Origin: Marsupella aquatica
Lineage: Eukaryota; Plantae; Marchantiophyta
Reading direction: 5' to 3'
Length of the DNA stretch: 64,000 nucleotides
NCBI GenBank assembly: GCA_973895155.1
Contig: OZ316896.1
Location: forward strand, 17,038,754-17,102,753
A model generated the notes under the pieces. That model did no database searches. It saw only the letters and a list, made by a program, of their open reading frames with translations, and was not told the origin of the DNA. A program made the position numbers and the translations under genes. Below, piece by piece: positions 15,201 to 64,000 of this stretch (position 1 is the first letter of the stretch; each line of letters starts with the position of its first letter).

Positions 15201-15937
15201 CAATTGCATTCACTCACAAAATTGACGGGTAAAATTCTTTTCCCGAAATGACGTCTCTATGAAAAAGAATCCAGAACTAAGAAAATGGTGACCAACAGCA
15301 GAACGGCGAGACTCACCAGGCATCGATCATCCCAATGAACATTGCCGTCAGGGGCCCGGCTGTAGCAGGCGACTTGAGCCGGCTGCTCTCGAACACCATG
15401 GAAAAATCCAAGTAACAGGTTCAGGAGGGAAACAACGCTAGTGACCTTTAGTTCATCGTCCACAGAGCAAATGCTACTTCAATTCCGTTCAGAAGATCAT
15501 AGCAGAGCTGCCTGAATCAAAATTAGAACTCCTGAAACTTCCGAGACCAGCCACGCGATCAGTGAGCAGCGGATAATTAAAATGCTACAAAAAAAACAGA
15601 ATCTTCTACATTCCGGTCCCAAAACTAGCGAACAATATACCTCTTGAAATGGAGGGCACCTGAACCGCAAGCTGGCATCACCGTGTCCACTGGCACCCAA
15701 TTTCATTTCAGCCACTTAATTCTCGCTCTGGACACGACCGTCCCCACCCGCATAGCCTTGCCTGGCACCAGAATTGTGCATGTTGTGCCGCCCGCCACCG
15801 CCAAACCACTCTCTTTCTCCACCATGTCTTCCCGTGTCTCCATGCCTCCAACCACTTACACCACCGTGTATCGCACCTCCTTGCCTTCCACCACCTCCTG
15901 AAGCTTCACGATAGTACTGTCTTTTAGGAAAATTCGT
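12276..15937 (-). pseudogene. DXO1: Inverted duplicate of DXO1 (mid-exon 2 to last exon), disrupted
   Basis: Exon-by-exon and intron homology to 22995-26739. In-frame TAA at 15718-15716 (parent AAC TTA, copy AAT TAA). 2-nt deletion near 12380 in the last exon (gcgaaaacaatttg to gcgaaaaatttg). Exon 1 is absent. Confidence 0.88.
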
Positions 15938-17466: not shown

Positions 17467-17528
<62 letters not shown>

Positions 17529-17742
17529 TACAAGGATGCCATTTCCACGACATTAATGATGCACCCAGATTATCTGCAGGTCATTGTGCTGTTGGGCTTT
17601 GAGTCTAGAAGCAATAGCCCTAGTAGGCTTCACTCAGAGTTTAAAGTGGAATGGGTCATTGTGCTGTTGGGCTTTGAGTCTAGAAGCACTAGCCCTAGTT
17701 GGCTTCACTTCACACCTTCACTCAGAGTTTAAAGTGGAATGC
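15938..17742 (-). pseudogene. CASP: Inverted partial duplicate of CASP (exons 2-5 plus 5' part of exon 9), fused to the DXO1 copy
   Basis: Reverse-complement homology to ~30170-31780 and 32866-32931. Nonsense TAG at 16202-16200 (MEEKVKETVEMK*). Indels in exon 3 near 16990-17015. Exons 6-8 are deleted. Confidence 0.88.
17469..17523. repeat. (CT)n microsatellite
   Basis: About 27 perfect CT units, absent from the parental CASP intron. Confidence 0.95.
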
Positions 17743-28450: not shown

Positions 28451-28572
28451 ATTACATATACTATTACACATAATTAGATACCATTAGATACCATTACATA
28501 CTATTACACATAATTACATAGCATTACATAGCATTACATAGCATTACATAGCATTACAGTGAATTACATACG
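28451..28572. repeat. 10-bp attacatagc-type repeat upstream of CASP
   Basis: About 12 variants of ATTACA/ATTAGA at a 10-11 bp period. Confidence 0.85.
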
Positions 28573-29258
28573 TTACGGCGACGTTACGTGTCAGCGGCCC
28601 GTTTCGAAGGGTCATTCTCTCTTTTTAAGGCTCCGTTCGTTCGCATCTTCGTGTTCGCTCTTCATTCTCGACATTTGCTGTGTATAACAAGAGGAGCAGT
28701 GTCTCTGCGTTTCACACGAGAGAGGTTTCCACTTTCGACACGATCGATCGATTGATCAATAGATCTACTGTGCGGTTTCGGGAGAAGAAAGTCGCCCCTC
28801 GATTTCTGATCCGGTATGTTCTGTCGATTCTGCAGACCGGATTTTCTCTCCAGATGGTGTGGTTTGAGTAAATGCGTGAATGAGTATGTTGATGAAGCGC
28901 AAGAAGCTTGAGACTGAGTTCTGCGTTTGGAGAAGATTGATTTGGTAGCATTCTCGTTGTTTCGTAGACTGCTGTGGTGTGTGAAGGAATGAGTCTTGGG
29001 AATGATGCGCAAAGCTTGAGACTGGCTGGACTGATTTCTCGGTCGGTGAGCGTTTTCGTGTCCTCCTGTCGATGATGCAGTCCGGTGTTGAGTTTTGTTT
29101 GATTTGACACTTTCAGAGGGAGGCTGGAACGCGATTAAGGAAGTACGCAAGGCTGAGGAGAAGAGAGAGAGATAGAGTGTCAGCTGATTTGGTTGGTGGG
29201 AAACTATCGAACGCAGGAACGAACGAAAGAGCGAAAGAACTTGGAAGTGGTGAACAAG

Positions 29259-32200
29259 ATGGATGGCGTGGAGGACGACAAAGGAGCGGCGGGGGATGGA
29301 GTGCTGGAGCGAGAGAAAGAATTGCAGCAGCCGGTTGCGGCTTTTAACGCGGCCTCTCCGATCGCTGTGGTGTTGAATTATTGGAGAGGTATGGAAAAAT
29401 GCTCCTCTTTGTCGTCGTTCTTTGGGATCGTGGCCGTTAGTGTCGATGCCCCTTTTCTGTCCGATCTACCTGTTTTCGGTCGGTAAGTATGTTGTAGGCA
29501 ACGCAAATTTTGCAGAACCGGGAAGTACGTCAGACCAGACCAGACTTGACCCTGTCCACATTATCGTGTACCACCACATCCTATTGCAATGCATAGGTCT
29601 GATAATTGCTGGTGCTGCCTGGTCTCGTTCTGGTTGCACAAAAGGGGATATTCACGGAATTGGTTTCTGCTAAAGACTCACTTCTGTAGCACTGGCGTCC
29701 TATATCCTCTGAATTTCCGCTTTGACTCTTTCCTTCGTGCTACGGAAAATGTGCTACGAATAGTGTGGTTCTTGGCTTTGTCAGATACCATCTCCCGTCA
29801 ATACCGTGTTGTTCACAAGATCTGTATCGTATCATTTCATCTAAACAAGAATGGGCACATACAAGCTCGTGTAAAGATGACCCAACAATATGAGTGCAGT
29901 GTCAGATGTGATAGTTGCATAACCGAAGTTGATTCCATTGTCTTGGCTAGAGCTATGAAATTCATTTTTTCACCCCTTCAATGTTAGCAGGGACACTTTT
30001 GTATGACAAGAAGTTTAGGGTGTGATAACAGATATATGAGGAACTGAACCCTGTTGATTCGTTAACTTTCTTGCAAGCAGCACTGATGTCTTTTCCTCTC
30101 CAAGTGAAGAGTCTGTTGCATCTAGCTTTTGAAAGTCGCAGAAGCTTATATTATGGTCATGTGGATCATGTCCATTCCACTTTAAACTGCCCAGTCTACG
30201 TGTCCGCTAATTGAGCTTAAGTAGACCTTTCCGCTGTCGGGCGGATGCTTCTAGTCTCAAAGCAAGCAGCACGATGACCTGTAGATAATCTGGGTGCAAC
30301 ATTAATGTTCTACAAGTTGCATCCTTGCAGAATTTGATTTGGAGAGAGAGAAAGGGAAACTTGATGAGCAAGGGCTGCGAATCGGAGAGAATCAAGAGAA
30401 CAGTCTGAAAAACCGTCGAAAGCTCGCAGAGAGTACACGAGGTATTTTATTAATCTCACAATTGGTTGTGTCTACGATAAGCTACCTTTTTGTTGCCTTG
30501 TGTTTCAGTGGTTATAGATCATTTTTCCTGCAATTGAAAGGGATGATTTCATGTCAAAGTTTTTGACGAGGAGCATATCGTGGGTGCTTAATTGTGTATA
30601 CCTCTCTACTGTCATCTGTCCGATGAGATGGGAAAGCACGAAGACATATTACACGTTGCAGAATTTTTGGGACTGGTCAGCAGTGGATATGTGATCGCCT
30701 TAAGTGGTTTGACAAAATGCAGATTTTAAGAAGACTGATTCCGAAGACAAGACAAAGGCGTTCGCCATATTACTGAAAGCTTATCAGGAAGAAGTGGATA
30801 ATCTGACTAAGCGTGCGAAATATGGAGAGAATGCCTTCCTTAATATCTACCAAAAGCTCTACGAGGCGCCGGATCCACTACCTGCGCTTGTCTCAGCCGA
30901 TGTAAGCTAACTGTACCGGTTTATCTACATTTTTGAGATCATCGTTTCCAGCATGTCACTGTTGGACTTTGTCTTTGGCTGGAATCAGTACAGGGTTCGC
31001 TTTTTGTTTTCAAATGTTGCGTTGTAGCCAACATTGTTGCAGATATCTTACAGTCAAAATATACAAAATTTTACATCAAAAGACTCTTCGAACAGAGCCA
31101 GGGTGGATAATTTCAGGGTTTGTTCTTAAATCTTAAACTGAGATAGACAACCTATTGGCGTCGACACTCAAATGCCAGCTGATCTAATGGAGATGAGAAC
31201 TATCTCATGTCCCTCCTAAGTCTATTGAACTTCTTGGGTTTGTAGGAGCTGGCAACAAAAGTTGCACAGCTGGAGATTGAGAATCGGAAAATGAACCTGG
31301 AATTAGAGGAGTTCAGGATTGAAGCAGCTCATCTCAAGAACCAGCAAGCAACTGTGAGGAGGCTTGAGGAGCGCAACCGACTTCTAGAGCAACAGGTTTA
31401 AATTCTATCCTAGCAATGATTTCATGGTAGTTACCTGGGGTGCTTACCCTTTTGGTTGTGATAAGGGCGAAGGTTTTTGAATAGATCTCCTGTAGTTCAT
31501 AGATACAAAATTCAACTTTTTAAATATGATCACTTGTGTCCAATGTTTTGGCAAGATGGAGGAGAAGGTGAAAGAAACAGTGGAAATGAAACAGCGGAGT
31601 TTGGCGGAAGAAAATCAAAAGACTCTTGAAGTTTTAAAAGAAAGGTTTGCACTTACCTTGCTGCAAATGATAAAGCACTGTCGATCTTGCAATGAAAGGA
31701 AGCATAGTACTTTAAAACATTTCCTTTGGATCATAGCATTTCCTCTCGTATTGCTGAGCTGAATATATAAAACGTTATTTGAAGCATTTGAAATCATCAA
31801 ACTCGTGAATGCTATTGAGTGGGATGATTTTCTCGTATTGTTGGGTACGGTGAAGCCCTGTATGTTTCCGTTGGAAAGAAGCGCTTTGCTGATTCCGAAA
31901 GTGGTGCCATCTTCACAGGGAGCGATCTCTTCAGGATCAATTACGGGCAGCTAAGGAGAGTGTACAGAATATGCAACGGCTTCATGAATATGGCCAAAGT
32001 CAGCTGTTTGAGCTACGGGCGCAATCAGGTTTTATACTTAGCACTGCCCGAGTTCCTTTCTTTGTGCCAGAGAACTCAAGATTAAAAGAAAAGCATGTTA
32101 AGGGTCGAGATGCCTTCGTTGATGACTGTTCTGATGTTTCGATTAGGATCACGGTACTGTTCTGACGTCGTTGTCATGTCTAATGGCTTCTGCACTCGTC

Positions 32201-35200
32201 AATCACAATTATTATGTCCAGATGACTCTGATAAATTTCGCGCTGTGTTTGGAAGCCGGGATCACTCACGTTGTCCACTGTCCCCAATTGTGCACGCAGA
32301 GGAAGAACGAGCAGCAAAGCAATCAGAGCTGAATCTTTTGACAGACGAAGTGGACAGAGCACAGGCAAGGCTGATAAGCCTAGAAAGAGAAAAGGTTTGT
32401 TCAGAATGTCTTGACGTCTTTTAATTGTTTTGCCTTCGACCATTTTGAACGAGAGGGACTGATTGTCATCGTTACCGCGTGTATAGTAATCGAGAAATTA
32501 CCCCTCGTCTGTTTGGTTTGACAAATTTGAGGCGGGACAGAGCATCACATGGTCTCTTTCTGCCTGCGTAGTTCAATCCTGCGAGCATGTACAAAACTGA
32601 GCGCTTCTTATAAATAAGCGTCACATGTTTATTAAGCGCGTTGTACATCGCCATATTCTTGTTACCTGTGACTCAGTGAGAAGCACGCTGACGTGTACGG
32701 TTCTGGCATGTAGGACCAACTTCGGTCTCAGTTGACAGCAGTACACAACCAAGAAGTACAGTATCGTGAAAAGTAAGCTCGGATGCACCTTATCAATGCT
32801 ATAAAGTTGATTGATGCGCCTTCATCTGAAAGTGAGTGTTGTTGAATATAATGAACATAATCTGGGATGTTCTGATACAGGCTAGACAATGAGACCAGTA
32901 GTAGTCTGGAGGCCTCATTAAGTGCCAAGGAGAAAATTATATCTGACCTACATACGCAGCTGCACAAGTTGGAAGCAACTTTGTCCTCAGAACGGGATGA
33001 ACATTCTGTAGAGGTGAAAAAGATGAGCACACAAGTCAATGAGAAGGTCAGTCGTTTGGCTCGAAAACCCTCCCAAGGATGTATGTTATTGTGTCAGGAA
33101 TCAACGCACAACGGGGTGCTAGATACTAGAGCTTCAAGGAAAGTACATCTTTACTACGCTATGTTTATGCGCTGCACACATCTCGCCCGAAGATCATCCG
33201 TTAGTGAGCGATGATTAGTATTCGAGCTTTGTTTGCCTTGAGAGAGAAATTTTACGCTTGACCCATCCAACACCAATGGAAAGAGTCAAGAAATTTCCTT
33301 CTGAGACTGTCTTGACCGTTGGAGACTTTGCTGATTTGGTCAAAATACTGGAACTGCCAGGATGTTATCATTGAAGACTTGCGGAAAGAAATCAACCAGC
33401 GGCCGACTGCAAAAGTAGCAGAAGACCTTCGGAAACAGATCAAGATATTGCAGGTGTTTAGTCTTTCTCAATCACGTGCCAGAGAAGTTCTAACTAAATA
33501 AGTAAACCTTTGATAGCTGTGAAGCACACTTTGCATCAGGTTGCAGGTTTTATGTTCAAACACTGCTAGATCGATGATTCGCTGTTCTTGTTAAAGTAAA
33601 AGCTGTATTTTTTTAATTGTCCGCTCATCATGCTACTTCTAAAAAGTAGTACCTGTGTTTTGGTGCAGGCAGTTGGGTACAACTCAATTGAGGCGGAAGA
33701 TTGGGAAATTGCTACTCGCGGAGAGGATATTGGAAAGCTGGAAACTTTGTTACTAGAAAAGAATCGCAGGATGGAACATGAACTAACACAAGCCAAGGTC
33801 CAATGCATACTTGACTTTTCTTTCAATGGTACTTGCAATGTTTTCTTCTGTCGAGAAACTTCTTATTTAGCAATAAGTTGTCGCTGTCCAAATATCTACG
33901 AACTTAAAGGGCTTGTTTGGACATCAAACATATTACTGTAGGCGCAGAATGACCATAGTAGGAAGAGCATAGCATAAACAAACATTCTATAAAGTACTGC
34001 ACCTGATGATTAATCTTGATGTCAAGATAGCTCTCATCCATCATGTGAGCTGTTCTTGTATGGTCTTTCTAGTGCTGAAGGCTCTCAAGTGGTGGTTAAG
34101 TTAGGCTCTGTGCTTCACATAAGTGGACTGGAAATCTTGTTAGTACTAGAAACCTAATATCAATTGAGGGAATCGGTATCAGGTGCAACTGTCAGAAAGA
34201 AACAGTTCTGCGGCAATAGCAGAAGCACAAGTCCAGGAGCTCAAGGCGAAGGTGGATGAGCAGAAAAAACTTATTTCAAAGCTAGAGGAGGACATTCTAA
34301 AGGTTTCATTCTTTCCTCAAGTCGTTTGTCCGACTTAAATCTCTATTTGCTACCTTTGGCACAGGCAAGGTTTGAAATCTTTAAAAACCGCCGTGGAGTT
34401 TAGTGCCTTATAGGTTTTTCAGGTTTGCAAGACTTCAAGAAAATGAGCCTCATAAAGTTGTGCCCTATGACTCCGAGAGATATTCAGAAGTGTTTATTCA
34501 ATAGCCTCTACTAGGCCTCTAAATTTGCAAGACTTGAGAGTCGTCGTATCAGCATGTTTCATATGAGCTATGTGCATCACAGAACATATTTCATGGAACT
34601 ACCAAAGCGTTTATTTTTTGGGTATGGTCGTGGATTCTTACTGTCTTAAGATTTGTTTATTCCACAGGGATATAACTCGTCAGAGAGACAAGCCTCGAAG
34701 CCAGATGAATGGGAGTCTACAGAGTCTGGAATCCCCACTGATTTGTTCGAGGTAGTGTATTTGCCCACGCCACCGATAAGTTTTTGAAGACGGGGTGCAT
34801 GTTGTGCTCTTGTCCCTTTGAAAGTGGATTTTGCTTTCTCACTCATCGGTTGAAACGTTTTGGCAGGGTGGAGGAAGACGCAGCGCTCCAGACGAAGAAC
34901 GGAACTCAATGCTGGATGTTATATGCAGTCAAAGAGACAGGTTCAAACAACGCCTGAGGGAAGCAGAAGAGGTTAGTGGTTTGTTCTCCACTCCGTAGAT
35001 GGGTTTCATTTATTATAAATGTTGCCCTATACATTCTGTGCCGTGCCTTCTGAGATCACAGGAATATCCATCTTTTTTGTGAAAGTACACGGCATTGGAT
35101 GACTTATTTATTGTCGCATTTTCAGGAGCTGAAAGTGGTGAAGGAGAAGAGCAAGAAGGTTGAAGCAGATCTAGAGAGAAGCAAGGCCGACAATGTGAAG

Positions 35201-39316: not shown

Positions 39317-39661
39317 TCTTAGGATTTACTCTTAGGTCTAGAGTTACCATTGTACCGTAGTTAGGGCTAACCTTAGTCGCAAACTTGATTAGGTTAGTTA
39401 TGTTGTGCACACTCTATAACCAAGCGGTGTTTGTTTGGAGAGTGGGAACTCAGGCTCATTGTTACGGAGCTAATTGAGAGATAGAGAGAGCTTGCACTGT
39501 GGATGCTTGGTATGGCTGGTCGGCCTAGAGTGCAGTAAAGCTCGTGTGTGTTCCCGTGGACGTAGCCTCATGTGGAGGTGAACCACGTATCTCTCTGTAT
39601 CGACTCTTGTGTGTTGGATGGTTCATGGGCTTGCCGTTGCGATTGTCGTCTATGCTCAACA
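39317..39661 (-). mobile_element. Solo LTR with 5-bp TSD TCTTC
   Basis: Reverse-complement match to 40363-40706 and 63846-64000. Flanked by TCTTC at 39312-39316 and 39662-39666. Confidence 0.82.
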
Positions 39662-40362: not shown

Positions 40363-40706
40363 TGTTGAGCATAGACGACATTCACAACAGCAAGCCCATG
40401 AACCATCCAACGCACAATAGTCGACACAAAGAGATATGTGGTTCACCTCCACATGAGACTACGTCCACGGGAACACACAAGAGCTTTACTGCACTCTAGG
40501 CCGAACGGGCATACCAAGCATTCACAGCACAAGCTCTCCCTATCTCTCAACTAGCTCCGTAACAATGAGCCTAAGTTCCCCCAGGGTCTGGCATCAGCCC
40601 TGGCTATACTCACAACAGCACTACCGCAAACATTAGCTAAGTCCTAACCCGAGTTAGCCTAACTGTGGTTAGCTCATGAGTCACAAGACTAGAGAAATAT
40701 CTAACA
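40363..40706 (+). mobile_element. Solo LTR with 5-bp TSD CCAAT
   Basis: TGTTGAG...CTAACA termini, with CCAAT at 40358-40362 and 40707-40711. Confidence 0.88.
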
Positions 40707-45199: not shown

Positions 45200-48100
45200 A
45201 TGGCTCAAGGGGGCTCTTCTAGTCGCACTCAAACTCCAGAGCCCTCCAATAACGCAATTACTCGGGTATCTTACGGCATTGACCTCGATCTGAACCTGTC
45301 TGGATATGCCCGTTGTGTTTAGAGATTGATCGTTTTGACAATATGCAGCCTGAAGGTCTATCTCAATCATGAGTATTTTGATATTGATCGATTTCTGCAA
45401 GTTTTCAGTTTTGTGTTGCATCCAATCTCAGTCCTATACAGCTAATTTCTATGCCTACTGTATGTTGGCGTGCTTAGGTTTTACAGCTTAATGAATCCCT
45501 CTTTGAGCTTCACAAACCAAAAGGGCGACCTAGCATGGTGGTCTTGTTTTTTCATGGCTTTCAGAATGGAAATTATGAAAATGCCCATATATCAACATGG
45601 AAAACTGAGCATGGACGAGAGGATGGATCATCCACATGGCTCCAGACTTGGTTGGTTGATGACGACCAGCACCCAGACGCTCACATCCTTTCTGTTGCAT
45701 ATAATGCTAGCTTGATGAAAAGCAAGAAAGAAGGAAGCTTTGACCTCTACATCATAGGGGAAAATATTATTTCAGATTTGCTAGAGGCAAATATTGCGCA
45801 AGGTCCCCGCTGTCCCATAGTATTGGTAGGACACAGTTTTGGGGGCCTCGTGGTGAAGGAACTGTGTGTTCAAGCACATAAGAGAGGCAGTATGGGTAGC
45901 TCCAAGCACAAAAACTTTCTGGAAAATATCAAGGGGGCATTTTTCTATTCCACCCCTCATCATGGGATTTCAGGAGAAATTTCGGAGTATTTTGTGAGCA
46001 AAACAAATCAACCCTTGTTGAATTATGTGAAAGTCCTGAGTACGTCTGCAGCAAGATTGCATGAAGATTTCGACAAGGTGCGAAAGCAGTGTGCTTGGCA
46101 GTCGGCAGGAGTAGGAGAAGGATTACCCACCCATCTGGTACTGGCATTCTCTCTCAATCTTATTAAATGGAAATATATGAAGATCTCTGATAGCTTCCAA
46201 TCACTTCTAAATCGAAGCAATGATCAGATATTAAATACTTACACCACGATACAATACTGTTCTAGATTGTTGACTAATTTGTTTCAATTCATTCCATAGA
46301 ACCCGCCATAGTACTGATAGAAGAAGGCAATGCGCAGTAACAATTTCTTTGCGAAGTGCAACTCTATGGATGCAATTTTGTTTAGTACTCAGTCATCTAA
46401 GTAGCATGTAACCGAGCTGCTAAAGAGTAATTTGTGTGAAGGATATAGTAGATACTTCCTTCATTGGATCTTGGTTGTTTGCTTGCTTGTATGTGCACAG
46501 AACTTATTAAAAACACAGATAATTGTACCAGAAGGATCGTCAAGATATGGAGACACCTTTGCTATGGTGCCAGAAGCTGATCACTTATCAATCTGCCGGC
46601 CAATATTAAAAATCTCAAGACCATTCAAGTCCTTGTCCAGCTTCCTGCACGGAGTTTGCGTTATGTGGAAGGTGAAGTCAAACTCTAGCTCGAATTTGTG
46701 GTGTGTTCATAATTGATGGTGGTTGTCTGTCAAATTATATCTGACATCGTTCCCAGCTCAACTGGATGAACCAATTCGATCTGTGAACAACACCTTAGAG
46801 GACATCATCAAAATGTGAAGGAGGCTATAGAACTAAAAACTCGTGTGCAACAGGATGCCGACCTTCAACCGATCCCAACAAGAATTTTCGACATCGATGA
46901 CCTTTATGTTCCTATTGTGGAGGTACAGAATGCTGTCATCGCAGCAATCGAAAAATTGGATGGTCCTCGGATAGTATTGTTGCATGGTGGTGTAGGCAAA
47001 GGGAAATGTGGTGTGCCAGATATGTGCATATGATATATCAAAACAGAAAAGAAGTGTTTCAGTATGTGCTCCTAGTCGATTGTGCAGGTAGCTCCAAACT
47101 TGATCCTTCGAACAAGCAGTATGAGATCTTGAGGAGGCTTTCCCCCGCCAGCTTAACCACTAATCCAGAGAAAGAAAGGAGTGACTTTAAATTAAGGATT
47201 GCAAAATCCCTCCACGAGTTTTTTTTGAGTGGCAGCAAGATCCTAATCATCCTGGACGGTGTGTCAGACCGTCGATTTATAGATGAGATGTTGAAAGCTT
47301 CTCAAGGTGGTACACAAGTGAAGTACTTGGTTACCTCACAATATCCCAATTTGTGTCACAGCTGTAGGAATTACTCTTTCCCTGTTTACATGTGTGATCC
47401 CAAACATGATGAGGCGAAGACGATACTGGCGACCCTTGTTGGACTGAAGGACAACGTAATTCCTCAAAAGTTACAGGTCCGTTTCGGAAAATCAGTTTCA
47501 GACCTTTTGTTGGTTTGCTCCTTATCACGTTCAGAGTTTACATTGGACTATACAATTCACAACAGTGCTGGAATTCCTACTTCATTTTTGTGCAGTATTG
47601 AATCATTTAACAAGTTACTTAGTATATATCAAAGCCTCTATATGAATATTGTTTTTGCAGCGTTTAACTAGTACTGCATCATTTTCTTTGGCATGCAGCG
47701 CATTGCAGATCAGATGATAACGGCTACAGGTGGCAACCCATTAGCTCTAGCATCTTTGGCGAGTAATTTTGTTAACAACCAAGACAAGACAGATGTGCGT
47801 GCATGGAATGAAGCCTACAAAGCACTATGTCAGATACTTCGCGATCCAGAGAAAATACTTGTCCTTGGGGGCACTTCTGATGATACTCCGCCAAGAAGTC
47901 TTTGGGCTGCCATGAAACTCTGTATTGATTACTTGGAGAGCCGTGATGCCAAAGATATTTTGTTCTTGATGTACGCCTGTGAAGGAGAATCAGTCCCAGA
48001 GGAGGTGTTAAGAATTATGCATGCTACTGCAAAGACTTCGGGTGGCATGTTTTCCAAGTCAATTGCAGAATTATGGTCTAGGGACCTCTTGAAAGCCAGT

Positions 48101-51100
48101 ACTAATACTATAGCAGCCAAGCTGAATTTTGATAGTAAGCACCAAATAAGTTCCAAGTCATGGTCCATGTTGACTACACTGAAGCTCTACATTGACCAGC
48201 GTATGGCTAGTGACCAGGAAATGAGGTCCTTATTCAGTTTTTTGCAAGGGGAAGGTGAGATTAAAGCTTCTTCTAGTGTCAAACATGAACGGGGCTCCGA
48301 AGCAGAACCAATGGTGAACGGGAAGAACAAAGTGGCAATCGCTCTGTGTGCATTGTATTTCGATGGAGATCATACTGATAAAGTTGTGAAAGAAGCTGCA
48401 ACTTGGGCTTGCGGAGCATCACATATGAACGACTGGAATGCTACAATCAAAGAGCGGAGACGAAAGGCCATTGAGCCCCTAATCTGGTTGCTGGACCAGA
48501 CAGAAGAAGACGACCCTACATGGAGAGAATCACATCTCCAGTGTCTGAGACAGGTACCTCTGGCTGCCCTTAAGTGTTAATTTTTTTCTTCCACTATCGA
48601 CTTTCACGCAATACACAAGTCATTTCTGCATGTTGTTAGCTTACCGTATTGAATTTGTTGGAACTAATGTTTTCACTAGGGCTTACGTTCTGTAAGGGTT
48701 GAGTAACAGAATGTCTTATGCATTGTATATGTGGCATGATGCTGATCATATTTCCGTGACCGCGATCAAAACTCTAAAACCACAATAATGGCTTTCAGAA
48801 ATTCGTCAAAGAACAGCACGCACTTCTCTCCGGAGCACTTCAGCTCCGGCTGAGCTATCTTACTGGGTTTACTGCAAAAAAGACAGAAATGAGTGAATTC
48901 GTGCTCGCGTCAATCAAATTGGCCTCAATGGAGTTTCCTGAAATTCTTCTGTACATTACAGTTTGCCTTATTTCCAAACGACAGGAATTTGAACCATCGA
49001 GATTCCAACAATAGAATCTCCGTCCCCATGTACAGCTTGTATGAATTTTATTTTGTTTCATGATTCCAGGTATTTCTGAGGTACATTTGTTTCAGCGAGC
49101 TTGATGACAGCAACATCTGTATCCTGTTGAAGCTGACCAGTTGCCCATCAGCACAGCTGGCAATGCTCGTCGCTCTTGCCGACATTCTTGACATCGAAGA
49201 AATACCTTTGCTAAAAAGTGATAGTCTGACTTTCTTGCAACCACTAGCGCACATTTTGAAATCGAATGCAGATTTGAATTCAAATATTCAAGTCGCTGCC
49301 TGGGAAGCACTAGATAAAGTTACTCAGAAATCTACTCGGGAAAGGCAATCCGATTCTATCGTAACAAGCACGCCAGATCTTTTGACCACATTGCAACGCT
49401 CTCTCCAAGATTCAGATGCGCGTGCAACAAAGGCTGCATTGATTTTGGCTCGCTTGTCATATGCCGGATATGAAATTGGCAACCACATTCTCACTGAAAA
49501 TGGGGCTGGGTTGCTCAGAAGCCTTGTGAAGGCTCTGTCAAAGGACCACAATCCCAAATTCCAACAACGGGCAGTGCATGCGATGGCCAATCTAGCTGCA
49601 GGAGGGGAGTCTGTGAAACTGCGAATTTTGGGTGCAGATGGGGCACTTGCAGGCTTGGTCAAGTGTCTCTCCAACGACCAGAACCCAGAAGTACAGGAAT
49701 ATGCTGCATGGACTTTAAAATATCTAGCTTTTGGACAGGAGACATTGAAGCTCAAAGTTTTGGGCGAAGATGGGGCGCTGGAGGGCCTGGTGGGGGCTTT
49801 GTCAAAGGACGGGAATCCCGAATTGCAAAAACGGGCAGCGGGGGCGTTGCGCAATCTAGCTGCAGGAGGGGAGTCTGTGAAACTGCGAATTTTGGGTGCA
49901 GATGGGGCACTTGCAGGCTTGGTCAAGTGTCTCTCCAACGACCAGAACCCAGAAGTACAGGAATATGCTGCATGGACTTTAAAAAATCTAGCTTTTGGAC
50001 AGGAGACATTGAAGCTCAAAGTTTTGGGCGAAGATGGGGCGCTGGAGGGCCTGGTGGGGGCTTTGTCAAAGGACGGGAATCCCGAATTGCAAAAACGGGC
50101 AGCGGGGGCGTTGCGCAATCTAGCTGCAGGAGGGGAGTCTGTGAAACTGCGAATTTTGGGTGCAGATGGGGCACTTGCAGGCTTGGTCAAGTGTCTCTCC
50201 AACGACCAGAACCCAGAAGTACAGGAATATGCTGCATGGACTTTAAAAAATCTAGCTTTTGGACAGAAGACATTGAAGCTCAAAGTTTTGGGCGAAGATG
50301 GGGCGCTGGAGGGCCTGGTGGGGGCTTTGTCAAAGGACGGGAATCCCGAATTGCAAAAACAGTCGGCGATGGCGTTGCGCAATCTAGCTGCAGGAGGGGA
50401 GTCTGTGAAACTGCGAATTTTGGGTGCAGATGGGGCACTTGCAGGCTTGGTCAAGTGTCTCTCCAACGACCAGAACCCAGAAGTACAGGAATATGCTGCA
50501 TGGACTTTAAAATATCTAGCTTGACAGGAGACATTGAAGCTCAAAGTTTTGGGCGAAGATGGGGCGCTGGAGGGCCTGGTGGGGGCTTTGTCAAAGGACG
50601 GGAATCCCGAATTGCAAAAACGGGCAGCGGGGGCGTTGCGCAATCTAGCTGCAGGAGGGGAGTCTGTGAAACTGCGAATTTTGGGTGCAGATGGGGCACT
50701 TGCAGGCTTGGTCAAGTGTCTCTCCAACGACCAGAACCCAGAAGTACAGGAATATGCTGCATGGACTTTAAAAAATCTAGCTTTTGGACAGAAGACATTG
50801 AAGCTCAAAGTTTTGGGCGAAGATGGGGCGCTGGAGGGCCTGGTGGGGGCTTTGTCAAAGGACGGGAATCCCGAATTGCAAAAACGGGCAGCGGGGGCGT
50901 TGGGGAATCTAGCTGCAGGAGGGGAGTCTGTGAAACTGCGAATTTTGGGTGCAGATGGGGCACTTGCAGGCTTGGTCAAGTGTCTCTCCGACGACCAGAA
51001 CCCAAAAGTACAGGAATATGCTGCATGGACTTTAAATAATCTAGCTTTTGGACAGGAGACATTGAAGCTCAAAGTTTTGGGCGAAGATGGGGCGCTGGAG

Positions 51101-52648
51101 GGCCTGGTGGGGGCTTTGTCAAAGGACGGGAATCCCGAATTGCAAAAACAGTCGGCGATGGCGTTGCGCAATCTAGCTGCAGGAGGGGAGTCTGTGAAAC
51201 TGCGAATTTTGGGTGCAGATGGGGCACTTGCAGGCTTGGTCAAGTGTCTCTCCAACGACCAGAACCCAGAAGTACAGGAATATGCTGCATGGACTTTAGA
51301 AAATCTAGCTTTTGGACAGGAGACATTGAAGCTCAAAGTTTTGGGCGAAGATGGGGCGCTGGAGGGCCTGGTGGGGGCTTTGTCAAAGGACGGGAATCCC
51401 GAATTGCAAAAACGGGCAGCGGGGGCGTTGGGGAATCTAGCTGCAGGAGGGGAGTCTGTGAAACTGCGAATTTTGGGTGCAGATGGGGCACTTGCAGGCT
51501 TGGTCAAGTGTCTCTCCAACGACCAGAACCCAGAAGTACAGGAATATGCTGCATGGACTTTAAAATATCTAGCTTTTGGACAGGAGACATTGAAGCTCAA
51601 AGTTTTGGGCGAAGATGGGGCGCTGGAGGGCCTGGTGGGGGCTTTGTCAAAGGACGGGAATCCCGAATTGCAAAAACGGGCAGCGGGGGCGTTGGGGAAT
51701 CTAGCTGCAGGAGGGGAGTCTGTGAAACTGCGAATTTTGGGTGCAGATGGGGCACTTGCAGGCTTGGTCAAGTGTCTCTCCAACGACCAGAACCCAGAAG
51801 TACAGGAATATGCTGCATGGACTTTAAAAAATCTAGCTTTTGGACAGAAGACATTGAAGCTCAAAGTTTTGGGCGAAGATGGGGCGCTGGAGGGCCTGGT
51901 GGGGGCTTTGTCAAAGGACGGGAATCCCGAATTGCAAAAACAGTCGGCGATGGCGTTGCGCAATCTAGCTGCAGGAGGGGAGTCTGTGAAACTGCGAATT
52001 TTGGGTGCAGATGGGGCACTTGCAGGCTTGGTCAAGTGTCTCTCCAACGACCAGAACCCAGAAGTACAGGAATATGCTGCATGGACTTTAAAAAATCTAG
52101 CTTTTGGACAGGAGACATTGAAGCTCAAAGTTTTGGGCGAAGATGGGGCGCTGGAGGGCCTGGTGGGGGCTTTGTCAAACGACGGGAATCCCGAATTGCA
52201 AAAACAGTCGGCGATGGCGTTGCGCAATCTAGCTGCAGGAGGGGAGTCTGTGAAACTGCGAATTTTGGGTGCAGATGGGGCACTTGCAGGCTTGGTCAAG
52301 TGTCTCTCCAACGACCAGAACCCAGAAGTACAGGAATATGCTGCATGGACTTTAAATAATCTAGCTTTTGGACAGGAGACATTGAAGCTCAAAGTTTTGG
52401 GCGAAGATGGGGCGCTGGAGGGCCTGGTGGGGGCTTTGTCAAAGGACGGGAATCCCGAATTGCAAAAACAGTCGGCGATGGCGTTGGGGAATCTAGCTGC
52501 AGGAGGGGACTCAATTAAACTCACAATTGTGAACAAGGAAGGGGCAATTGCAGGCCTGCTTAGGGCTTACTCGGAAGTCAACAAACCTCTTTTGCAGAAA
52601 TACGCCGCGTTGGCATTGGTCAAATTGGCACATACACTAGACCCATAA
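45200..52648 (+). CDS. NLR/STAND-like protein: alpha/beta hydrolase + NB-ARC-like NTPase + armadillo-repeat array; interrupted by a frameshift and an in-frame stop in this sequence
   Basis: Predicted exons 45200-45265, 45487-46137, 46501-46671, ~46854-47476, 47699-48553 and 49070-52648. Hydrolase: VLFFHG, ILSVAYNAS, IVLVGHSFGG, FFYSTPHHG, ADHLSICRP. NB-ARC: Walker A HGGVGKGK, Walker B-like ILIILDGV, RNBS-B-like KYLVTS, GLPL-like GGNPLAL. Then ARM repeats. Frameshift at ~47007; TGA at 50522-50524. Confidence 0.85.
49589..52510 (+). repeat. Coding tandem array: 11 x 264-bp units, each encoding two 44-aa armadillo repeats
   Basis: Unit starts (aatctagctgcagg) at 49589, 49853, 50117, 50381, 50642, 50906, 51170, 51434, 51698, 51962 and 52226, with a partial unit at 52490. 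ARM signature GAL..LV..L....P.VQ..AAW.L.NLA. Confidence 0.97.
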
Positions 52649-54222
52649 ATCAAGATTAAAGCGAGGTCCGAGGTGGTCTGGTTGGATGCTCTGACCAAGT
52701 CTGCTGCCATGGGTGAAAATGAGTTTCGAAAAGAAGCACAACTGGCTTTGAAGAATCTTGAGGTAGATAAGCGTTATGGCTTGAAATTTTGGCAGAAATA
52801 CCTTTAAGACTGGGCTCATGGAGACCAACTAGAGCAAAGGTATCCAACAATTTAAGTGGCATGGTTTTGCTATTTCAGAAGCGTGGAATTTCTCAGTCCG
52901 GAAGGATTGGTCTAAGGTCCAACTCCCGTGCAAGGTTGAACGCAAGATTGGATTTGTCAGTCATATGAAGGACAATTGTCCATATATAGTCACCGCAAAT
53001 GCTTGAAGATCCATGACCTGGGCTTACTGTTCACTTTTCTCAAACCTTCAGGTACTCGCGTTAGTCTCCCAAGCTTGAGAACGCCAAGACTGATTCAAGC
53101 ATCTGGTAGCAAGTAGCTAAATTTGTTCTGAACAAGGTTTATACAGGGAATGCTGGAGCACCAGGGTGTCTAGACAATTGTGCCTGTTTACCGATCAAGT
53201 AGACCCAGAATTGATGGATACATCAGACACATCAGATTCAGATTACCCCATGTTGGTGCCGCACCTTGTTAAATGTCGCCTCTCGCATTGCTCGTACACC
53301 ACACGCCCAGCTACCTATATGTGTGATGAAGTTCCTTGCTCAGAAAGTCCTTGCTTCTTTGGCTAAACCGGCTGGTTGCTTAGACTTTTCCGCTCAAGTG
53401 CTCCTCGTATTTTCTCCTTTCACTGGCAAGCTCACTTTCCTGCTTGTCCTGTCTGTAACTTCCCCGATTTGGCATTCCGTAGAATTGGAAATTCATTCAC
53501 TCTCGGTTGTCCATTGCTGACAGCCATGTCAGAAGTTTGAAAGGATACTCAGGAGAATGTCACAAAGCTCACATGGTGCACGATTCTGTCGGCCTCAAAA
53601 GGTCAGTACGTTTTCTGTTAGTACTTTGCAGAACTCTGTGTCTTATTTTTTGGGTGGTAATTTACCTTCCATGGATCAATGTTGGGTTTGCCATTCAACG
53701 GATCTTGATCGTTTTGATCATATTCTAGTTCTTATAATTCATCATCTGTCATTGATCTGAAGGACTTCACAAACCCACAGACTAGTTATATTTGTATGCT
53801 CTAGCTGATGTGAATGATCTATTGGATGTGGTGGTTGCCAGTCAGACAATGTTGAGCTTACAACAGGATTTAGTATTTTCTGATGGGGACTCAACCTTAA
53901 TTATGTAACGCTGCCAAAGGAACAAAAAAGTACAATAAGCTTGAATATATCAGAGTGCCAAAGAACAAAAGCTCCAAACGTAGATACCTTAAAAATATAT
54001 ATATTTCCTGCCAAAGAACAAACAACTCCAAAGTTAGAGATAGGAAGTGAAAAGCAGGGGTCCCAACAAGGGGGCAAAGGGAGGGAAAAAAGGGAGAAAA
54101 AAGCCCTGGGAAGACCACCAAGTGAATTCAAAAACCATCCATTATTACATGAGATCTAAGGCGCTACTCAACTGTAAACTGAAAAGCCCATGTCTTCCCC
54201 CAATTCCATTTCCGATCACAAT

Positions 54223-54940: not shown

Positions 54941-55687
54941 CTATGAAGAAGGTCCAGGTGCAGGAGAATGAGGAGAGGCAATAGGTGTGTAGTTGGGCGT
55001 GCTAGTGTCGATGGGTATGAGAAGAGTGCTTGCCGAATCAATACCCGATCCTCCCAAAGTATTGGCGTTGATGACGGAGTCTTCAGGCACTCCAAAGCTT
55101 TGGGCAATACTATACAATATATCCCCAGGCGCTATGGGATAAGTGACTAGATTCTGCACAGTAGCATTGTGCTGGGCAGCACTCGGGCATGCGCAACGCA
55201 AAGGGACGATAATGGGCAAGCCAACGACCAGATAGTTGGAGTCCACTGTAGGATTCGCATCGATCATTGCTTGGGTGGTGCTCAAATACTCGAAAGTGTT
55301 CTCACTCAGGTCGTAGAAAGTGTCCCCGCTCCCTATGATGTAAGTCAAATTGGCGTAAGACGTCTGATTGAAGCAGATGCAGATGAGAGGTATTATCAGG
55401 GGTTGCCCACTCGTCAACGAGCTGTTCGCCGACAATTTGTTCAGAGTGGCCAGCTCCTGTGGATCAGTGTTAAAGAGCGATCCTATGGAAATAATGTCGC
55501 TGTAGCCCGTCCGAGCTCTGTAGAGTGCAAATGCACCACACTTGTTCGTTCCCAAATCTGAGCACAAGTAAGTGGTGCCACGGTAAGCCTGCTGGGCACT
55601 GGTCCTGTGATCTTCGAGTCCTATCACCAAAATCAGAAGAACAAGTAGGAAATGACGGCAGAGACTCCTAACGTCGGACTTTTCCAT
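54941..55687 (-). CDS. Secreted LysM-domain protein (LYK4/5/LYR-type ectodomain only, no TM or kinase)
   Basis: 248-aa single-exon ORF: signal peptide, YLCS...CGAFALYRA, and three LysM-like modules separated by CIC and CAC motifs (YIIGSGDTFYDLS, TYPIAPGDILYSIAQSFGV). It ends in a Pro/Ser linker followed by a stop. Confidence 0.88.
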   Translation of the reverse strand: MEKSDVRSLCRHFLLVLLILVIGLEDHRTSAQQAYRGTTYLCSDLGTNKCGAFALYRARTGYSDIISIGSLFNTDPQELATLNKLSANSSLTSGQPLIIPLICICFNQTSYANLTYIIGSGDTFYDLSENTFEYLSTTQAMIDANPTVDSNYLVVGLPIIVPLRCACPSAAQHNATVQNLVTYPIAPGDILYSIAQSFGVPEDSVINANTLGGSGIDSASTLLIPIDTSTPNYTPIASPHSPAPGPSS

Positions 55688-56746
55688 AGCTACAAGAGTC
55701 CCTGGGAAAGTCCTTCACAAGCACCCCCAAGAAAAATGCTTTAGGCGTAATTCTCTCACTACAAAGAGGCAATAATTTCCTGTCCACGGCGATGCTCCCT
55801 GATTGGACTCAAAACATCGTCCCCAAGCTGGATCACTAAGCAGTGCACACTCCCTGCTCCGTGTTATTCCGTCCTCTTCCGACTCACCACCAATAGCAGC
55901 ATCACGAGTCACTGCAGTTTCCAACGTCCTCACCAACACTGCTTCGTCCCGGCTATTTAACCTTCCGAACAGATCAAGACGGTCCCACCTTTCAGCAGAG
56001 ATGACGAACTCTGAAAGAACTCAACGACTTCCGCAAGATCTCGAAAGAGTCCGCTGGCCCTCCGGAGCATTCCTCTGACGAGAATCAGAACAGGACACAG
56101 CTCAAAGAAAGACCGAGGTCAGCGAGAGGAAATATCGATGGAGTTATTGTCGAAAATGAGTATGATTCCTTCTTTGCAGCAAAAAGGCTATGTCCCCTAC
56201 AAGAAGTCCCCGGGTTCTAGATAGGGAACCTCTTTTCCTGCTCCAATCCCAATCAGATGCTGTTTCCCTCCTTTTCCCCCACCTTTGCTTCAAGACCGAA
56301 GTAGGCAACGAAGGAAGGCAAGAGTAACCAAAGCAAGGATATCTATCACCCGCACTTCCGGACCAATGCGACGTTCTTACAGCTAACTCTCATAGAACTG
56401 ATCTTTCCTCGTCCTTCACATGAAATCACGCCCGTGCTTCCTGCTCCTATTCCACTCCAGTCAATTAAAAGTTGCTATCCCCCTTCTTTCCCCACCTTTG
56501 AGTCAACACTACAGCTGGCAAGGCAGCAATGCAAGAGTAAGCAAAGCAAGGGCATGAATGCAACGAACATAGAGCTAACACGCAGACGTCCTTCACGTAA
56601 AATCATGCCCTTAGCTTCCTGCTCCAATTCCAATCAGTTCCCGTTGCTGTTCCCCCTCTTTCTCCACCTTTGTGCCACACTACAGCACTGCAGTAGGGAA
56701 GGAACTAAGGATGTAAGGAAGGCAATGAGACTAACACCCACAGTTA

Positions 56747-57556
56747 CACGCGATTGCAACGCAACGCGCATAGAGAGAGCTAGCATGATCAGCAGCAGCC
56801 ACCTCACTCCCAGCAATCTACAAAGCATGAAGCTTCCAACTAGGAAATGAATCCCCCACGCGATTGCAACGCAACGCGCATAGAGAGAGCTAGCATGATC
56901 AGCAGCAGCCACCTCACTCCCAGCAATCTACAAAGCATGAAGCTTCCAACTAGGAAATGAATCCCCCAGTTTCCATTTTTCTACTATGCAAGTCTGCATA
57001 AAAGGGCGTACAAAAACCCTGAATGAGGTTAGTCCTCAAAAGGCGGACGTCAGCCACCCAAAGTTTTTTTTGCCTTGATTACCAAAGCTGACCCATTCAA
57101 CAGAGGATAGACTATTTTTTTGTGCCTTGAATACCAAAACTGACCCAGCCAGCCACCCAAAGTTTTTTTTGCCTTGAATACCAAAGCTCACCCATTCAAC
57201 AGAGGATAGACTATTTTTTTGTGCCTTGAATACCAAAACTGACCCATCCGACGATCAACTCAGGAGCATGCACCTCTCAGGAGGGTAGCCCACAAGGGGG
57301 GTCATAAGGAGCATGCACCTCTCAGGAGGGTAGCCCACAAGGGGGGTCATACCCAGTACCAGGAAGGAGAGAGGGTTGGACCAGAGCCCCAAAGCGGACT
57401 AGCTAAGGGGTTCAGCCACCTAACTTCATCCTCTGTGCCCTTGCTGGGATACGGTCTTTGCTAGTTGATAACCCCAAAGCGGACTAGCTAAGGGGTTCAG
57501 CCACCTAACTTCATCCTCTGTGCCCTTGCTGGGATACGGTCTTTGCTAGTTGATAA
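56747..57556. repeat. Four adjacent, mutually unrelated near-perfect tandem duplications (~110, ~99, ~45, ~85 bp)
   Basis: 56747-56968, 57051-57247, 57263-57351 and 57387-57556 are each a two-copy direct repeat. Confidence 0.9.
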
Positions 57557-58276: not shown

Positions 58277-60178
58277 CTAGCTTGGGAGAGAAAGAAAGAA
58301 GATGTAAGAGGGTGACCCATCTTCATCCGGGTCACAGGTATCAGAAGCTTGAAATCTCGCAAATAACAGAGATGCCAAAGAGTGCATTAAGGAAGGAGAA
58401 TTGCCCTCGCTACCAGCAGCCGGTTGTTGGGCATTTGTCATCAGGAGCTCAAATGCATGCGAACCTGTTCTTCCCTTTAGTGAGGCTATGCTCGCACCTG
58501 TGAGTAAATACTTATCTGCAGGGTCCTTTGAACCGTCTTTATATATCAGCCACTTCACCATCATTTTCCCATCTTGAGTTGCTTTGAGGGCCTCAATGGC
58601 TGTCTTCGATATACCAAATCCTTTGAGCAGAAAGATAGAAATTTCCTTCGAAACCACGACAGCTTTCACCAGCTTCACCGACAAACCAAGCCCACCAGCT
58701 GCCCCTTTCAAGGCTGCGAACCCTTGTCCAACCAGGCCAATCATCCCCCCACCTTTCAATCCTAGTACAGCTTCAAAAACCTTTAGAATACCATTTGTCA
58801 AATCATAGCTCTTGCTCACTAAATCCCAATTAGTAAGCCCACCTTGGAGATTGCCTCCCAGTCCAGCCCCAAACTCCTTCGTCAATCTTACCAGAGTGAG
58901 AGCCCCATCGGACGCCTTCAGACCCTTCAAAAGTGTCTCTCTTCTAGCTTTACCTGCAGCTGCATTGATGTCAGCTTTACTGAACATTCCAATATGGGTT
59001 CTAGTAGATTTCCACACACTAGCAAAGTCTTTGGAGATCTTCCCCGCTTTCACAATCATCCTGGCTGTTTCAAATCCTAAGACTACGCCATTGGCAGCTC
59101 CAAATCCTATGAGAACGCCACCAGCAGGAGCCTGGAACTTTTGGATCACACCGGTGGCAGTCTTCACCCCGCTCACAACACCAGTGGCCATCTTCACGCT
59201 CTTCATAAATCCCTTCATTGGTTTCAGTTGATTTGAAATGCTATCGACCGCTCCTAGTCCTGTCCCTGCAAGCGTTCTGTTTGTCATTCCGTCACTGAGC
59301 TTACTCGAAAGGGCGCCATCTGCCGGTATTCTGGATTCTCCAATTGCTATCCCACTAGCGGCACTACTGCCTTCTCGAAGGAAGGATCCGTTTACCCCTT
59401 CAGCAGGGGTTAGTGAGCCTGTTGTTGTTGGACTGCCAGATATGTTCATATCTCCAAATTTGGTGCCATCTCCGCTCCCACGTGGAGTCCCGTTGGCCCC
59501 AGCATTCTCTGCAGTGGCTCCATTCCCACCTGGAGTCCCTTCGATTCCGTTGCTCTCAACCCTGCCAGTAGTTGCTGCTCCTGTCCTGGCTTGAGGTCCT
59601 TTAATCCCTTTTCCCTCAGCATTGCCCGTAAGTGCTCCATTGCCACCTTCAGACCATTTGCTCCCTCTGCATTCACGACTGTTGCCTGATGTTCCTCCAC
59701 TCCATGCCCCCTTTCCTTCCAGATTTCCTTCTCCTCCTCTGATGTTGCCGACGTTATCTCCTGTACACCTGGCTCGTCGTCCAGCTCCTATTCCTCTGCC
59801 ATTTCTGACCCCACCTCCACCACTTCTTCCTCCTAAGGACTTTCCCAAACTTAATCTACAACTACTAGTAGGAGTTCCGATTCTCCCTACTTTTCCACCA
59901 CCACTACCAGGCCCCCACCTACTACTATTACTACACCTCCCACCGGCAGTTCCATCGCCAAACATGCCTCCATCGTCCCGGGAAAAATCCATGTCTTTCA
60001 AGGCTCGGGTGGTGGATCTGAAACCCTTCATCATCATATAGCTGAATTGCAATCTCCTAAGCACGTTGAGAGCCAAGCCCTCGAATCCCATGATTCCTTT
60101 CTCTGCTGCTGGTTCGGGCCCGGGAGCAAAGAAGAAGCTGCCACCCATCCCATTTGGGGGATTGCCGAGGAGCCCCAT
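58277..60178 (-). CDS. Hypothetical protein: Gly-rich disordered N-half, Gly/Ala-rich amphipathic/hydrophobic C-half
   Basis: Uninterrupted ~1.9-kb ORF (track 58277-60211). The in-register plus-strand frame is broken by several stops. The start codon is uncertain (several ATGs from 60178 downward). No family recognised. Confidence 0.6.
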   Translation of the reverse strand: MGLLGNPPNGMGGSFFFAPGPEPAAEKGIMGFEGLALNVLRRLQFSYMMMKGFRSTTRALKDMDFSRDDGGMFGDGTAGGRCSNSSRWGPGSGGGKVGRIGTPTSSCRLSLGKSLGGRSGGGGVRNGRGIGAGRRARCTGDNVGNIRGGEGNLEGKGAWSGGTSGNSRECRGSKWSEGGNGALTGNAEGKGIKGPQARTGAATTGRVESNGIEGTPGGNGATAENAGANGTPRGSGDGTKFGDMNISGSPTTTGSLTPAEGVNGSFLREGSSAASGIAIGESRIPADGALSSKLSDGMTNRTLAGTGLGAVDSISNQLKPMKGFMKSVKMATGVVSGVKTATGVIQKFQAPAGGVLIGFGAANGVVLGFETARMIVKAGKISKDFASVWKSTRTHIGMFSKADINAAAGKARRETLLKGLKASDGALTLVRLTKEFGAGLGGNLQGGLTNWDLVSKSYDLTNGILKVFEAVLGLKGGGMIGLVGQGFAALKGAAGGLGLSVKLVKAVVVSKEISIFLLKGFGISKTAIEALKATQDGKMMVKWLIYKDGSKDPADKYLLTGASIASLKGRTGSHAFELLMTNAQQPAAGSEGNSPSLMHSLASLLFARFQASDTCDPDEDGSPSYIFFLSLPS

Positions 60179-60960
60179 CAACGAATGACAGGACCACTTT
60201 GACACGAGCACTGAATTACTGCTGACGCTGCCTGCGGAGAACAGAGCGATGATTAATCAATCGCCTCGACGATTCTGTACGTAGACCACCAGCCAAGAAA
60301 TGTACTGCCTTCCCTCTCTCTCTCTCTCTAGTGCAGAAGTAGGAGATTGGCGAAACCCTCTGGTACAGTATGTCAGCGACTGGCGGCACCAGCCCAGCCC
60401 TGAAACATTACGGTAGAATCCCGGGTTTTGCTTGGAATTTATGACAGTCGCATGTGCTGGGCTTCTAATACTCGGAGTTGCGTCTGAACTCCTTCAATTC
60501 GATTCCCTCGCATATAGGAGCGAATTGCTCTTTTTGGCCTCTTCAACTGTCTGTTTGTTTTGTGAGTTTGAGGGTCAAACCGCTTCCTCTTCAGTTCCCG
60601 TTGCTTCCGCCATCTCTCTCTCTTATCTGGTCTCTGCTCTTTCGACTGGATGGATCCGAAAATCTCGCAGTGACAGATTGCAGCTCCCAATAGCCAACTC
60701 GTGTTTCTTCGTTTCGCTAACTAGACTGTGCGATCGATAACTGGGGAGGAGTGTCTGTGACAGAGTGTTCCCGTTCTGTGACGGAGATTTGCTGCTCTTG
60801 GGAGTTTTTTTCTGGAGCTGGGCGATCCGATCGAGGTGCAGAGGGGTCTCGGGAGCAGCATCGAGTTAAAGGGTTTAGTCCATGAAAATTGTTTGGAGCT
60901 AGTAGTCTCAAGCAGGGATTAGGATAGCAACAGCAGGAGCAGCAACGAGAGGTGTCCGAG

Positions 60961-63845: not shown

Positions 63846-64000
63846 TGTTGAGCATAGACGACATTCGCAATGGCAAGCCCATGAACCATCCAACACACAA
63901 GAGTCGACATAGAGAGATACGTGGTTCACCTCCACATGAGGCTACGTCCATGGGAACACACAAGAGCTTTATTGCACTCTAGGCCGACCGGCCATGCCAA
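63846..64000 (+). mobile_element. LTR of the same family, truncated by the window edge
   Basis: tgttgagcatagacgacattc...gtggttcacctccacatgag...ctacgtcca is nearly identical to the start of 40363. Confidence 0.85.

Follow-up and report, generated by a model that had tools for sequence, protein, structure and literature searches.

What kind of gene lies at positions 45200–52648, on the + strand, of a 64,000-nt stretch of the genome of the liverwort Marsupella aquatica (contig OZ316896.1, positions 17,038,754 to 17,102,753; hereafter the window), where coding segments for an alpha/beta hydrolase, an NB-ARC domain and a long array of armadillo (ARM) repeats follow one another? The initial annotation took them to be one splice-compatible gene, encoding a non-canonical immune or non-self receptor of a class not recognised as described in plants. 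As read here, the locus is instead a multiply broken copy, predicted to yield no working receptor, whose hydrolase resembles that of the hydrolase–nucleotide-binding–leucine-rich repeat proteins (HNLs) of liverworts and whose remainder resembles receptors with a coiled-coil (CC) domain, an NB-ARC domain and ARM repeats (CC-NB-ARM). Taking its decay and its chimeric make-up together, we consider it probable that a recent in-frame rearrangement between an HNL and a CC-NB-ARM gene produced this locus, now most likely a pseudogene.

The domain content first proposed was borne out. The nucleophile elbow GHSFGG (45829–45846, exon 2), the His motif ADHLSICRP (46576–46602, exon 3), the Walker A sequence GGVGKGK (46986–47006) and the GGNPLAL motif (47729–47749) were all located; hydrolase, NB-ARC and ARM segments stand in the order given, with Pfam matches to DUF676 (E 4e-6), to NB-ARC in two exon frames (E 1.5e-3 and 0.086) and to Arm (E 1e-53 and 3e-104); and 24 ARM units were counted where at least 22 had been claimed. 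The layout of a STAND-type NB-ARC protein with an HNL-type hydrolase and an ARM solenoid therefore stands. Five exons can be drawn (45200–45265, 45478–46137, 46501–47476, 47699–48553 and 49070–52648), separated by four introns with GT–AG ends, two of which agree with exon ends of relatives. Comparisons were made with 170 proteins (numbered with a P), a sample and not a census: some were supplied by three word-based searches and the others are the 150 top-scoring of 2298 phmmer matches, and all were classified with custom profiles. The features are as follows.

45200..45265, + strand: exon 1, N-terminal leader of 22 codons (ATG at 45200, GT donor at 45266)
45478..46137, + strand: exon 2, main part of the alpha/beta hydrolase (Pfam DUF676; identity to HNLs)
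46501..46657, + strand: exon 3, C-terminal part of the hydrolase with the His motif (60–64% identity to P0008–P0010)
46658..46853, + strand: fusion junction, with what remains of a CC domain, its C-terminal half (alignment to the CC of P0001 and P0061)
46854..47476, + strand: first half of the NB-ARC (56–58% identity to P0001, 65% to P0061)
47699..48553, + strand: second half of the NB-ARC and the following helical region (61% identity to P0001)
49070..52648, + strand: last exon, a helical linker and then 24 ARM units (Pfam Arm; units span 49538–52648)
52649..52807, + strand: open in-frame tail 3' of the TAA at 52646–52648 (weak match to a custom ARM profile, conditional E 0.013; no Pfam match)

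The two ends of the locus point to different ancestries. Exon 2 is 75% identical to the hydrolase-NB-LRR proteins P0008 and P0009 of Calypogeia fissa, the leader in exon 1 is similar to the N-terminus of P0008 (compared by eye), and the identity of exon 3 is likewise to C. fissa HNLs, whereas the NB and ARM segments are 48–61% identical to the CC-NB-ARM protein P0001 (E 7e-97 for the exon at 47699–48553, with the identity extending across its entire length). Between them lies a segment that the initial annotation missed: 46672–46853 aligns to P0001 and P0061 over the back half of their CC domain and shares its frame with the hydrolase in exon 3. No complete N-terminal CC domain is present; the C-terminal half is what is left, and it carries a stop and a frameshift. 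(Treating 46658–46756 as an intron with its acceptor at 46756 was dropped, as this segment aligned to CC coding sequence.) In five relatives, a single open frame takes in both CC and NB and ends where an intron of the window starts, at 47477. We compared the window with contigs from four of five listed public sequencing runs, belonging to two studies: X1 and X2 from organism A, and X3 and X4 from organism B. In X2, X3 and X4, contigs of paralogues meet the window sequence at 46715 but differ from it 5' of that point, where the translated loose ends read as CC; short high-depth contigs, likely from HNL paralogues, cover exon 3 up to 46657. The junction itself is bridged by contigs of all four runs, although no contig among those listed spans the entire locus. 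Because contigs bridge the junction and the CC remnant is in frame, the join is real DNA, made inside coding sequence.

Is the product of this join still a gene? Read straight through, the first in-frame stop comes at codon 314 (TGA 46714–46716), followed by a −1 frameshift near 46814, within the CC remnant; by a second −1 frameshift at 47013, inside the Walker A segment (46986–47009); and by a TGA at 50522–50524 in ARM unit 8, which a 3-nt deletion created. If the tail at 52649–52807 is an extra capping ARM unit, as it may be, the TAA at 52646–52648 would count as a fifth lesion. Walker A of the window reads GK-C, with no Ser or Thr, unlike the remaining 29 of the 30 NB-ARM-type rows, which all read GKS or GKT; Walker B (47240–47263) is altered too and reads LDG, and the two do not occur intact in one open frame. 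X1 contigs cover 46525–46925 and 46919–47312 with 0 differences and no gaps, and thereby match the lesions at 46714, 46814 and 47013; X2, a second sample of organism A, matches over 46714 and 47013, with 46814 outside its coverage. Since the locus carries stops and frameshifts, and the first three of these lesions are shared by public contigs that match the window identically, we read it as most likely a pseudogene.

It has to be asked whether this is nevertheless a working receptor, with lesions that arose as assembly errors or that unusual splicing takes out (for example, of 46672–46853 together with an intron around 47013). The Ser and His motifs of the hydrolase are intact, the stop in the ARM array is known from the assembly alone, a phase-compatible donor at 46672 and acceptor at 46853 would skip the first two lesions, and GT–AG pairs that restore the frame beyond 47013 are present in the sequence. 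However, the product of the hypothetical 46672–46853 splice stops at codon 359, just past Walker A; any rescue intron there would delete part of the P-loop or the following helix, in a region that is one open frame in relatives; the Walker A frameshift recurs without deviation in the X1 and X2 contigs; and Walker B is altered as well. We give a working receptor very little credence, and the claim of a single splice-compatible gene was not confirmed. The P-loop lesion looks specific to organism A, because X3 and X4 each have one contig with an additional base behind 47013, and GKST is read in the loose ends of organism B contigs that match 47014–47070 identically. Taking the extra T at 47013 in organism B for an open but degenerate P-loop was set aside, as the GKST loose ends make that assignment ambiguous.

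All three hydrolase exons are open, Ser and His motifs are kept, and every lesion lies 3' of the hydrolase. In a PDB sequence search, the hydrolase exon had no better than weak matches (E 0.15 and above). A stop far upstream of three introns is expected to trigger nonsense-mediated decay. This bears on another alternative, in which a truncated hydrolase of about 313 aa, ending at TGA 46714, acts by itself in the manner of TIR-only proteins and others reduced to an N-terminal domain. Two isolated Marchantia hydrolase domains are active in Nicotiana benthamiana, where they cause death resembling the hypersensitive response (HR; PMC11218826; for this and the other papers cited, our statements refer to the accessible parts of the source), which speaks for such a product, as does the open reading of all three exons; yet TGA 46714 sits far ahead of three introns, so that its transcript would be expected to decay, and a short time since inactivation accounts equally well for an intact hydrolase. 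We regard the truncated product as improbable. The hydrolase family as a whole appears to be a widely shuffled module, since it is fused to five other kinds of domain in predicted proteins (B-lectin, U-box, caspase-like, Roc-COR and NAM, in P0014, P0031, P0041, P0127 and P0154).

The same layout was found elsewhere in liverworts. Two of the 170 proteins are hydrolase-NB-ARM proteins that continue into tetratricopeptide repeats (TPRs), P0002 (CAM6129886.1) and P0035 (CAM6088866.1), and nine further proteins have a hydrolase N-terminal to this NB type; one of the nine, P0050 (CAM6117780.1), also has ARM/HEAT repeats. P0002, P0035 and P0050 are C. fissa gene models, long and uninterrupted, whose P-loops are intact. 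The junction of P0002 is seamless, with P0036-like HNL sequence running directly onto P0003-like CC sequence at another point than in the window, and its NB region is 79% identical to that of the CC-bearing P0003. The hydrolase of P0035 is 56% identical to the nearest HNL and has kept Ser and His nonetheless. At the nucleophile position, the 10 hydrolases on an NB-ARM-type body have Ser in 3, Cys in 2 and Asp in 5, and the 80 HNL hydrolases have Ser in 41, Cys in 17, Gly in 11 and Asp in 1, with 10 unmatched. A clade of five hydrolase-bearing Riccia genes on this NB type (P0056, P0064, P0069, P0078 and P0110) spans two species; their nucleophile position holds Asp and the His motif was not found in them, and they are likely pseudo-hydrolases, with C-terminal regions that could be assigned to no family. 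The other eight of the nine proteins, all from Riccia, show no ARM family among the Pfam matches listed (at most five families per protein).

Do these proteins descend from one fusion? In an NB tree of 38 rows (five rows here and in the tree described next are of half length), the HNL rows form one clade (100/100) and the window NB-ARC falls outside it in a separate clade. Its sisters there are the CC-bearing P0001 and P0061, while P0002 pairs with P0003 and P0035 with P0086; a single clade of all 12 hydrolase-bearing rows is rejected by the approximately unbiased (AU) test (p-AU 7e-6), and a 14-row tree under a mixture model rejects a clade of the window, P0002 and P0035 (p-AU 0.002). A hydrolase tree of 29 rows, from which P0034 was excluded as short, rejects that same clade (p-AU 1.9e-64) and nests the window hydrolase beside the C. 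fissa HNLs P0008–P0011 (100/100). The window, P0002 and P0035 each have a different HNL as hydrolase sister and a different CC-bearing protein as NB sister. A second hydrolase tree, built on 26 of 121 hydrolases chosen by best BLAST score, needs six separate origins for the 10 rows on an NB-ARM-type body, each beside different HNLs as that choice of partners has them. Because both domain trees reject one origin, the swap of CC for hydrolase likely happened repeatedly, and because CC remnants persist in the window and in P0002, we infer that the CC came first and the hydrolase later. That hydrolase-NB-ARM is one ancient class from which the CC-bearing relatives derive by replacement seems extremely improbable to us: hydrolase-bearing members of this NB clade do occur in both Calypogeia and Riccia, and changes of label on a tree cannot separate gain from loss, but the six origins, the CC remnants and the AU tests on both trees all disfavour it.

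What would such a receptor sense? The 24 ARM units (22 have 44 aa and one has 43 aa, while the last is short; 49538–52648) alternate between types A and B in 132-nt repeats, and type B units are 98.7% identical at the nucleotide level. Among the 20 internal units, all 11 variant codons change the amino acid, and 8 of the 11 lie within the 11 residues leading up to the conserved Asn of helix 3; the absence of any silent change has a crude P of 0.04. The ARM units of P0002, P0003 and P0050 vary most 7–8 residues before the helix-3 Asn, and those of P0002 and P0003 also 4 before it. The best PDB sequence matches of the units are designed armadillo proteins, and the Trp and Asn align with those of one such protein. 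The variable face of helix 3 is, we take it, the peptide-binding groove of ARM repeats, and near-identical units that vary on this helix would allow the binding surface to change fast through repeat shuffling.

Membership of the wider NB-ARC family is plainest in the intact relatives (Pfam NB-ARC E 2e-16 to 3e-19, beyond the cut-off of the family). A CC-NB profile of 11 relatives matches NRC2, ZAR1, MLA13, Sr35, ADR2 and Apaf-1 (E 5e-12 to 2e-6). A structural model of Marchantia paleacea P0075, made from a 33-row alignment (pLDDT 85, pTM 0.64), has helices at its N-terminus, then a P-loop domain and an ARM solenoid, and matches armadillo structures; its Foldseek list holds mostly ARM proteins, with NRC4 at rank 45. 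(A single-sequence fold of residues 1–1010 of P0035 reached pLDDT 38.8 and was not used.) The top match of P0001 (0.91) and of P0075 (0.94) in the ESM Atlas is a 1051-aa streptophyte NB-ARC/Arm cluster. The window NB-ARC groups with liverwort CC-NB-ARM(-TPR) proteins including P0075, in a tree without rice RLS1 and with P0075 unmatched to the published table. CC-NB-ARMs are treated as a conserved class in PMC12512272, whose cluster holds 62 rows including RLS1 (LOC_Os02g10900) and 16 from Marchantia (5 M. polymorpha and 11 M. paleacea, several of them NB-ARM-TPR). In the accessible part of that source, no cluster row is from Calypogeia or Riccia and no hydrolase is among the entries listed, a softer absence because Pfam detects these hydrolases poorly and two cells were incompletely seen.

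Four known systems invite comparison. RLS1 is a CC-NB-ARC protein with three ARM motifs, a gain-of-function allele of which triggers HR-like death (PMC10030324); its class shares with the window an NB-ARC followed by C-terminal ARM repeats without LRRs, but the window has a hydrolase in place of most of the CC, has 24 near-identical ARM units and is broken. Bryophyte HNLs (also Hyd-NLRs) have the same DUF676-like hydrolase family, with Ser elbow and His motif, but an NB-ARC of the HNL clade and LRRs instead of ARM repeats. Sphagnum hydrolase-NLRs are nested in the CC/RPW8 clade with independently gained hydrolases (PMC11218826), a published hint of hydrolase gain on a CC-type NB-ARC; they belong, however, to moss NLR subclades, and the word "arm" has 0 mentions in the accessible main text of that paper. 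Fungal NLRs with SesB-like hydrolases are the fourth: they too join hydrolase, STAND NTPase and solenoid, swap N-terminal domains between close paralogues, and carry repeats more than 85% identical with variable sites on the concave face, in ANK and TPR arrays alike (PMC4986451). The window array likewise exceeds 85% internal identity, with variable codons clustered on helix 3, but fungal solenoids are of WD40, ANK or TPR type and the window has ARM repeats and plant parts; we read the likeness as a parallel and not as membership. Horizontal transfer from fungi is not needed, as all named close relatives are liverwort proteins: all 7 named matches of the NB exon come from C. fissa, and the 27 matches of the hydrolase exon comprise 22 from C. 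fissa, 4 from Riccia sorocarpa and 1 without a species name. Identities of 61–75% would themselves suggest a related leafy liverwort as the source of the window. The architecture is assembled from two known receptor classes and is not a new kind of system. NB-ARM and hydrolase-NB are mentioned separately in PMC7145615, PMC9825502 and PMC10586772, and no description of hydrolase-NB-ARM was found in the literature searched, mainly open-access; within that literature the view of the architecture as undescribed holds for the three-part combination, but NB-ARC with ARM repeats in place of LRRs is a described plant class.

Beyond this locus, these data can be read as outlining an undescribed, LRR-free class of liverwort immune receptors, with CC-NB-ARM bodies in which an HNL hydrolase took the place of the cell-death module at least three times and perhaps as many as six, and with homogenised, fungal-style ARM arrays whose variation lies on the binding helix; the window would be a recently made, decayed member, and CAM6088866.1 an intact one with Ser, His and P-loop. 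We put the chances of this slightly short of even. Several observations weigh against the reading that we favour for the window and its relatives. The three intact examples are known as predicted gene models alone, and in two of them Cys occupies the position of the nucleophile Ser. The pairing of P0035 with P0086 is marked in the 38-row NB tree, yet has 94/94 in the 14-row tree. The nonsynonymous excess among the ARM units is marginal; TGA 50522 and the unit count, both known from the assembly of a tandem array alone, could be assembly errors; and X1 may be the source sample of the window assembly and so not independent. Organism B contigs identical just past 47013 carry an intact GKST P-loop, and close NB-ARM copies with an intact P-loop exist there, which no contig links to a hydrolase. 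Finally, the near-identical fused copy of organism B is stopped in frame not only by TGA 46714 but also at 46675, a lesion of its own, on account of which the fusion may never have yielded a full protein.

This last point is shared by an alternative in which the fusion was dead on arrival, a chance rearrangement of two abundant NLR families, with the other hydrolase-NB-ARM models being by-products or annotation merges. Both families are multi-copy here (many contigs at 90–95% identity), a join has a 1 in 3 chance of being in frame, and stops interrupt the junction frame in the fused copy of organism A as well as in that of organism B. Against this stand the length, open frames and intact P-loops of P0002, P0035 and P0050, the retention of Ser and His in P0035 at its distance from any HNL, and the Riccia clade, in which five genes of two species bear a hydrolase on the same NB type. 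We judge death on arrival unlikely, though deserving of serious consideration.

Returning to the rearrangement that we favour for the window, the steps would be these. A hydrolase-NB-LRR gene and a CC-NB-ARM gene would have rearranged in frame, recently. As the DNA shows, the break lay within coding sequence: the front half of the CC gave way to the hydrolase, and its back half stayed in place. To go by the trees, the same swap would have occurred separately in other liverwort genes, which are still uninterrupted. In intact versions, which likely work as other STAND receptors do, the ARM groove would bind a ligand, the NB-ARC would exchange ADP for ATP and oligomerise, and the clustered hydrolases would trigger a defence or cell-death output in place of the CC.

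The rest of the window holds features of other kinds. At 54941–55714, on the − strand, a single open frame has an N-terminal hydrophobic stretch and three LysM domains of NFP/LYK type and ends in a stop that follows a linker rich in Pro and Ser, and the next frame shows neither a transmembrane nor a kinase segment. It is predicted to be the ectodomain of a LysM receptor, either truncated or secreted, and lies tail to tail with the NLR-like locus. Segments 11498–17613 and 22995–32933 form an inverted multi-block duplication (about 6 kb in total at 82–96% identity, the longest block 3.9 kb at 87%). A Gly-rich open frame of 659 codons without a Pfam match lies at 58277–60256 on the − strand, with Pro-rich frames on the opposite strand, so that either strand may be the coding one, and 56747–57556 holds a cluster of several different two-copy tandem duplications of 45–112 nt, perfect or near-perfect. 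Three copies of a 155–218 nt element at 91–94% identity (39444–39661, 40363–40580 and 63846–64000), two of which form an inverted pair about 700 nt apart, are possibly transposon ends.

For the biology of these receptors, the window locus is chiefly useful as a snapshot of how such a swap comes about. P0003 and P0002 form a natural pair, one with CC and one with hydrolase, for asking what oligomerisation does to the hydrolase, which a 2023 review lists as an open question (PMC10586772), and since Ser is kept in only 3 of the 10 hydrolases on this body, the need for catalysis is directly testable. Should the intact versions prove functional, an ARM groove that binds peptides and varies at few positions would be coupled to an enzymatic output, and plants would have N-terminal executioner domains that are portable even from one NB-ARC clade and sensor type to another.

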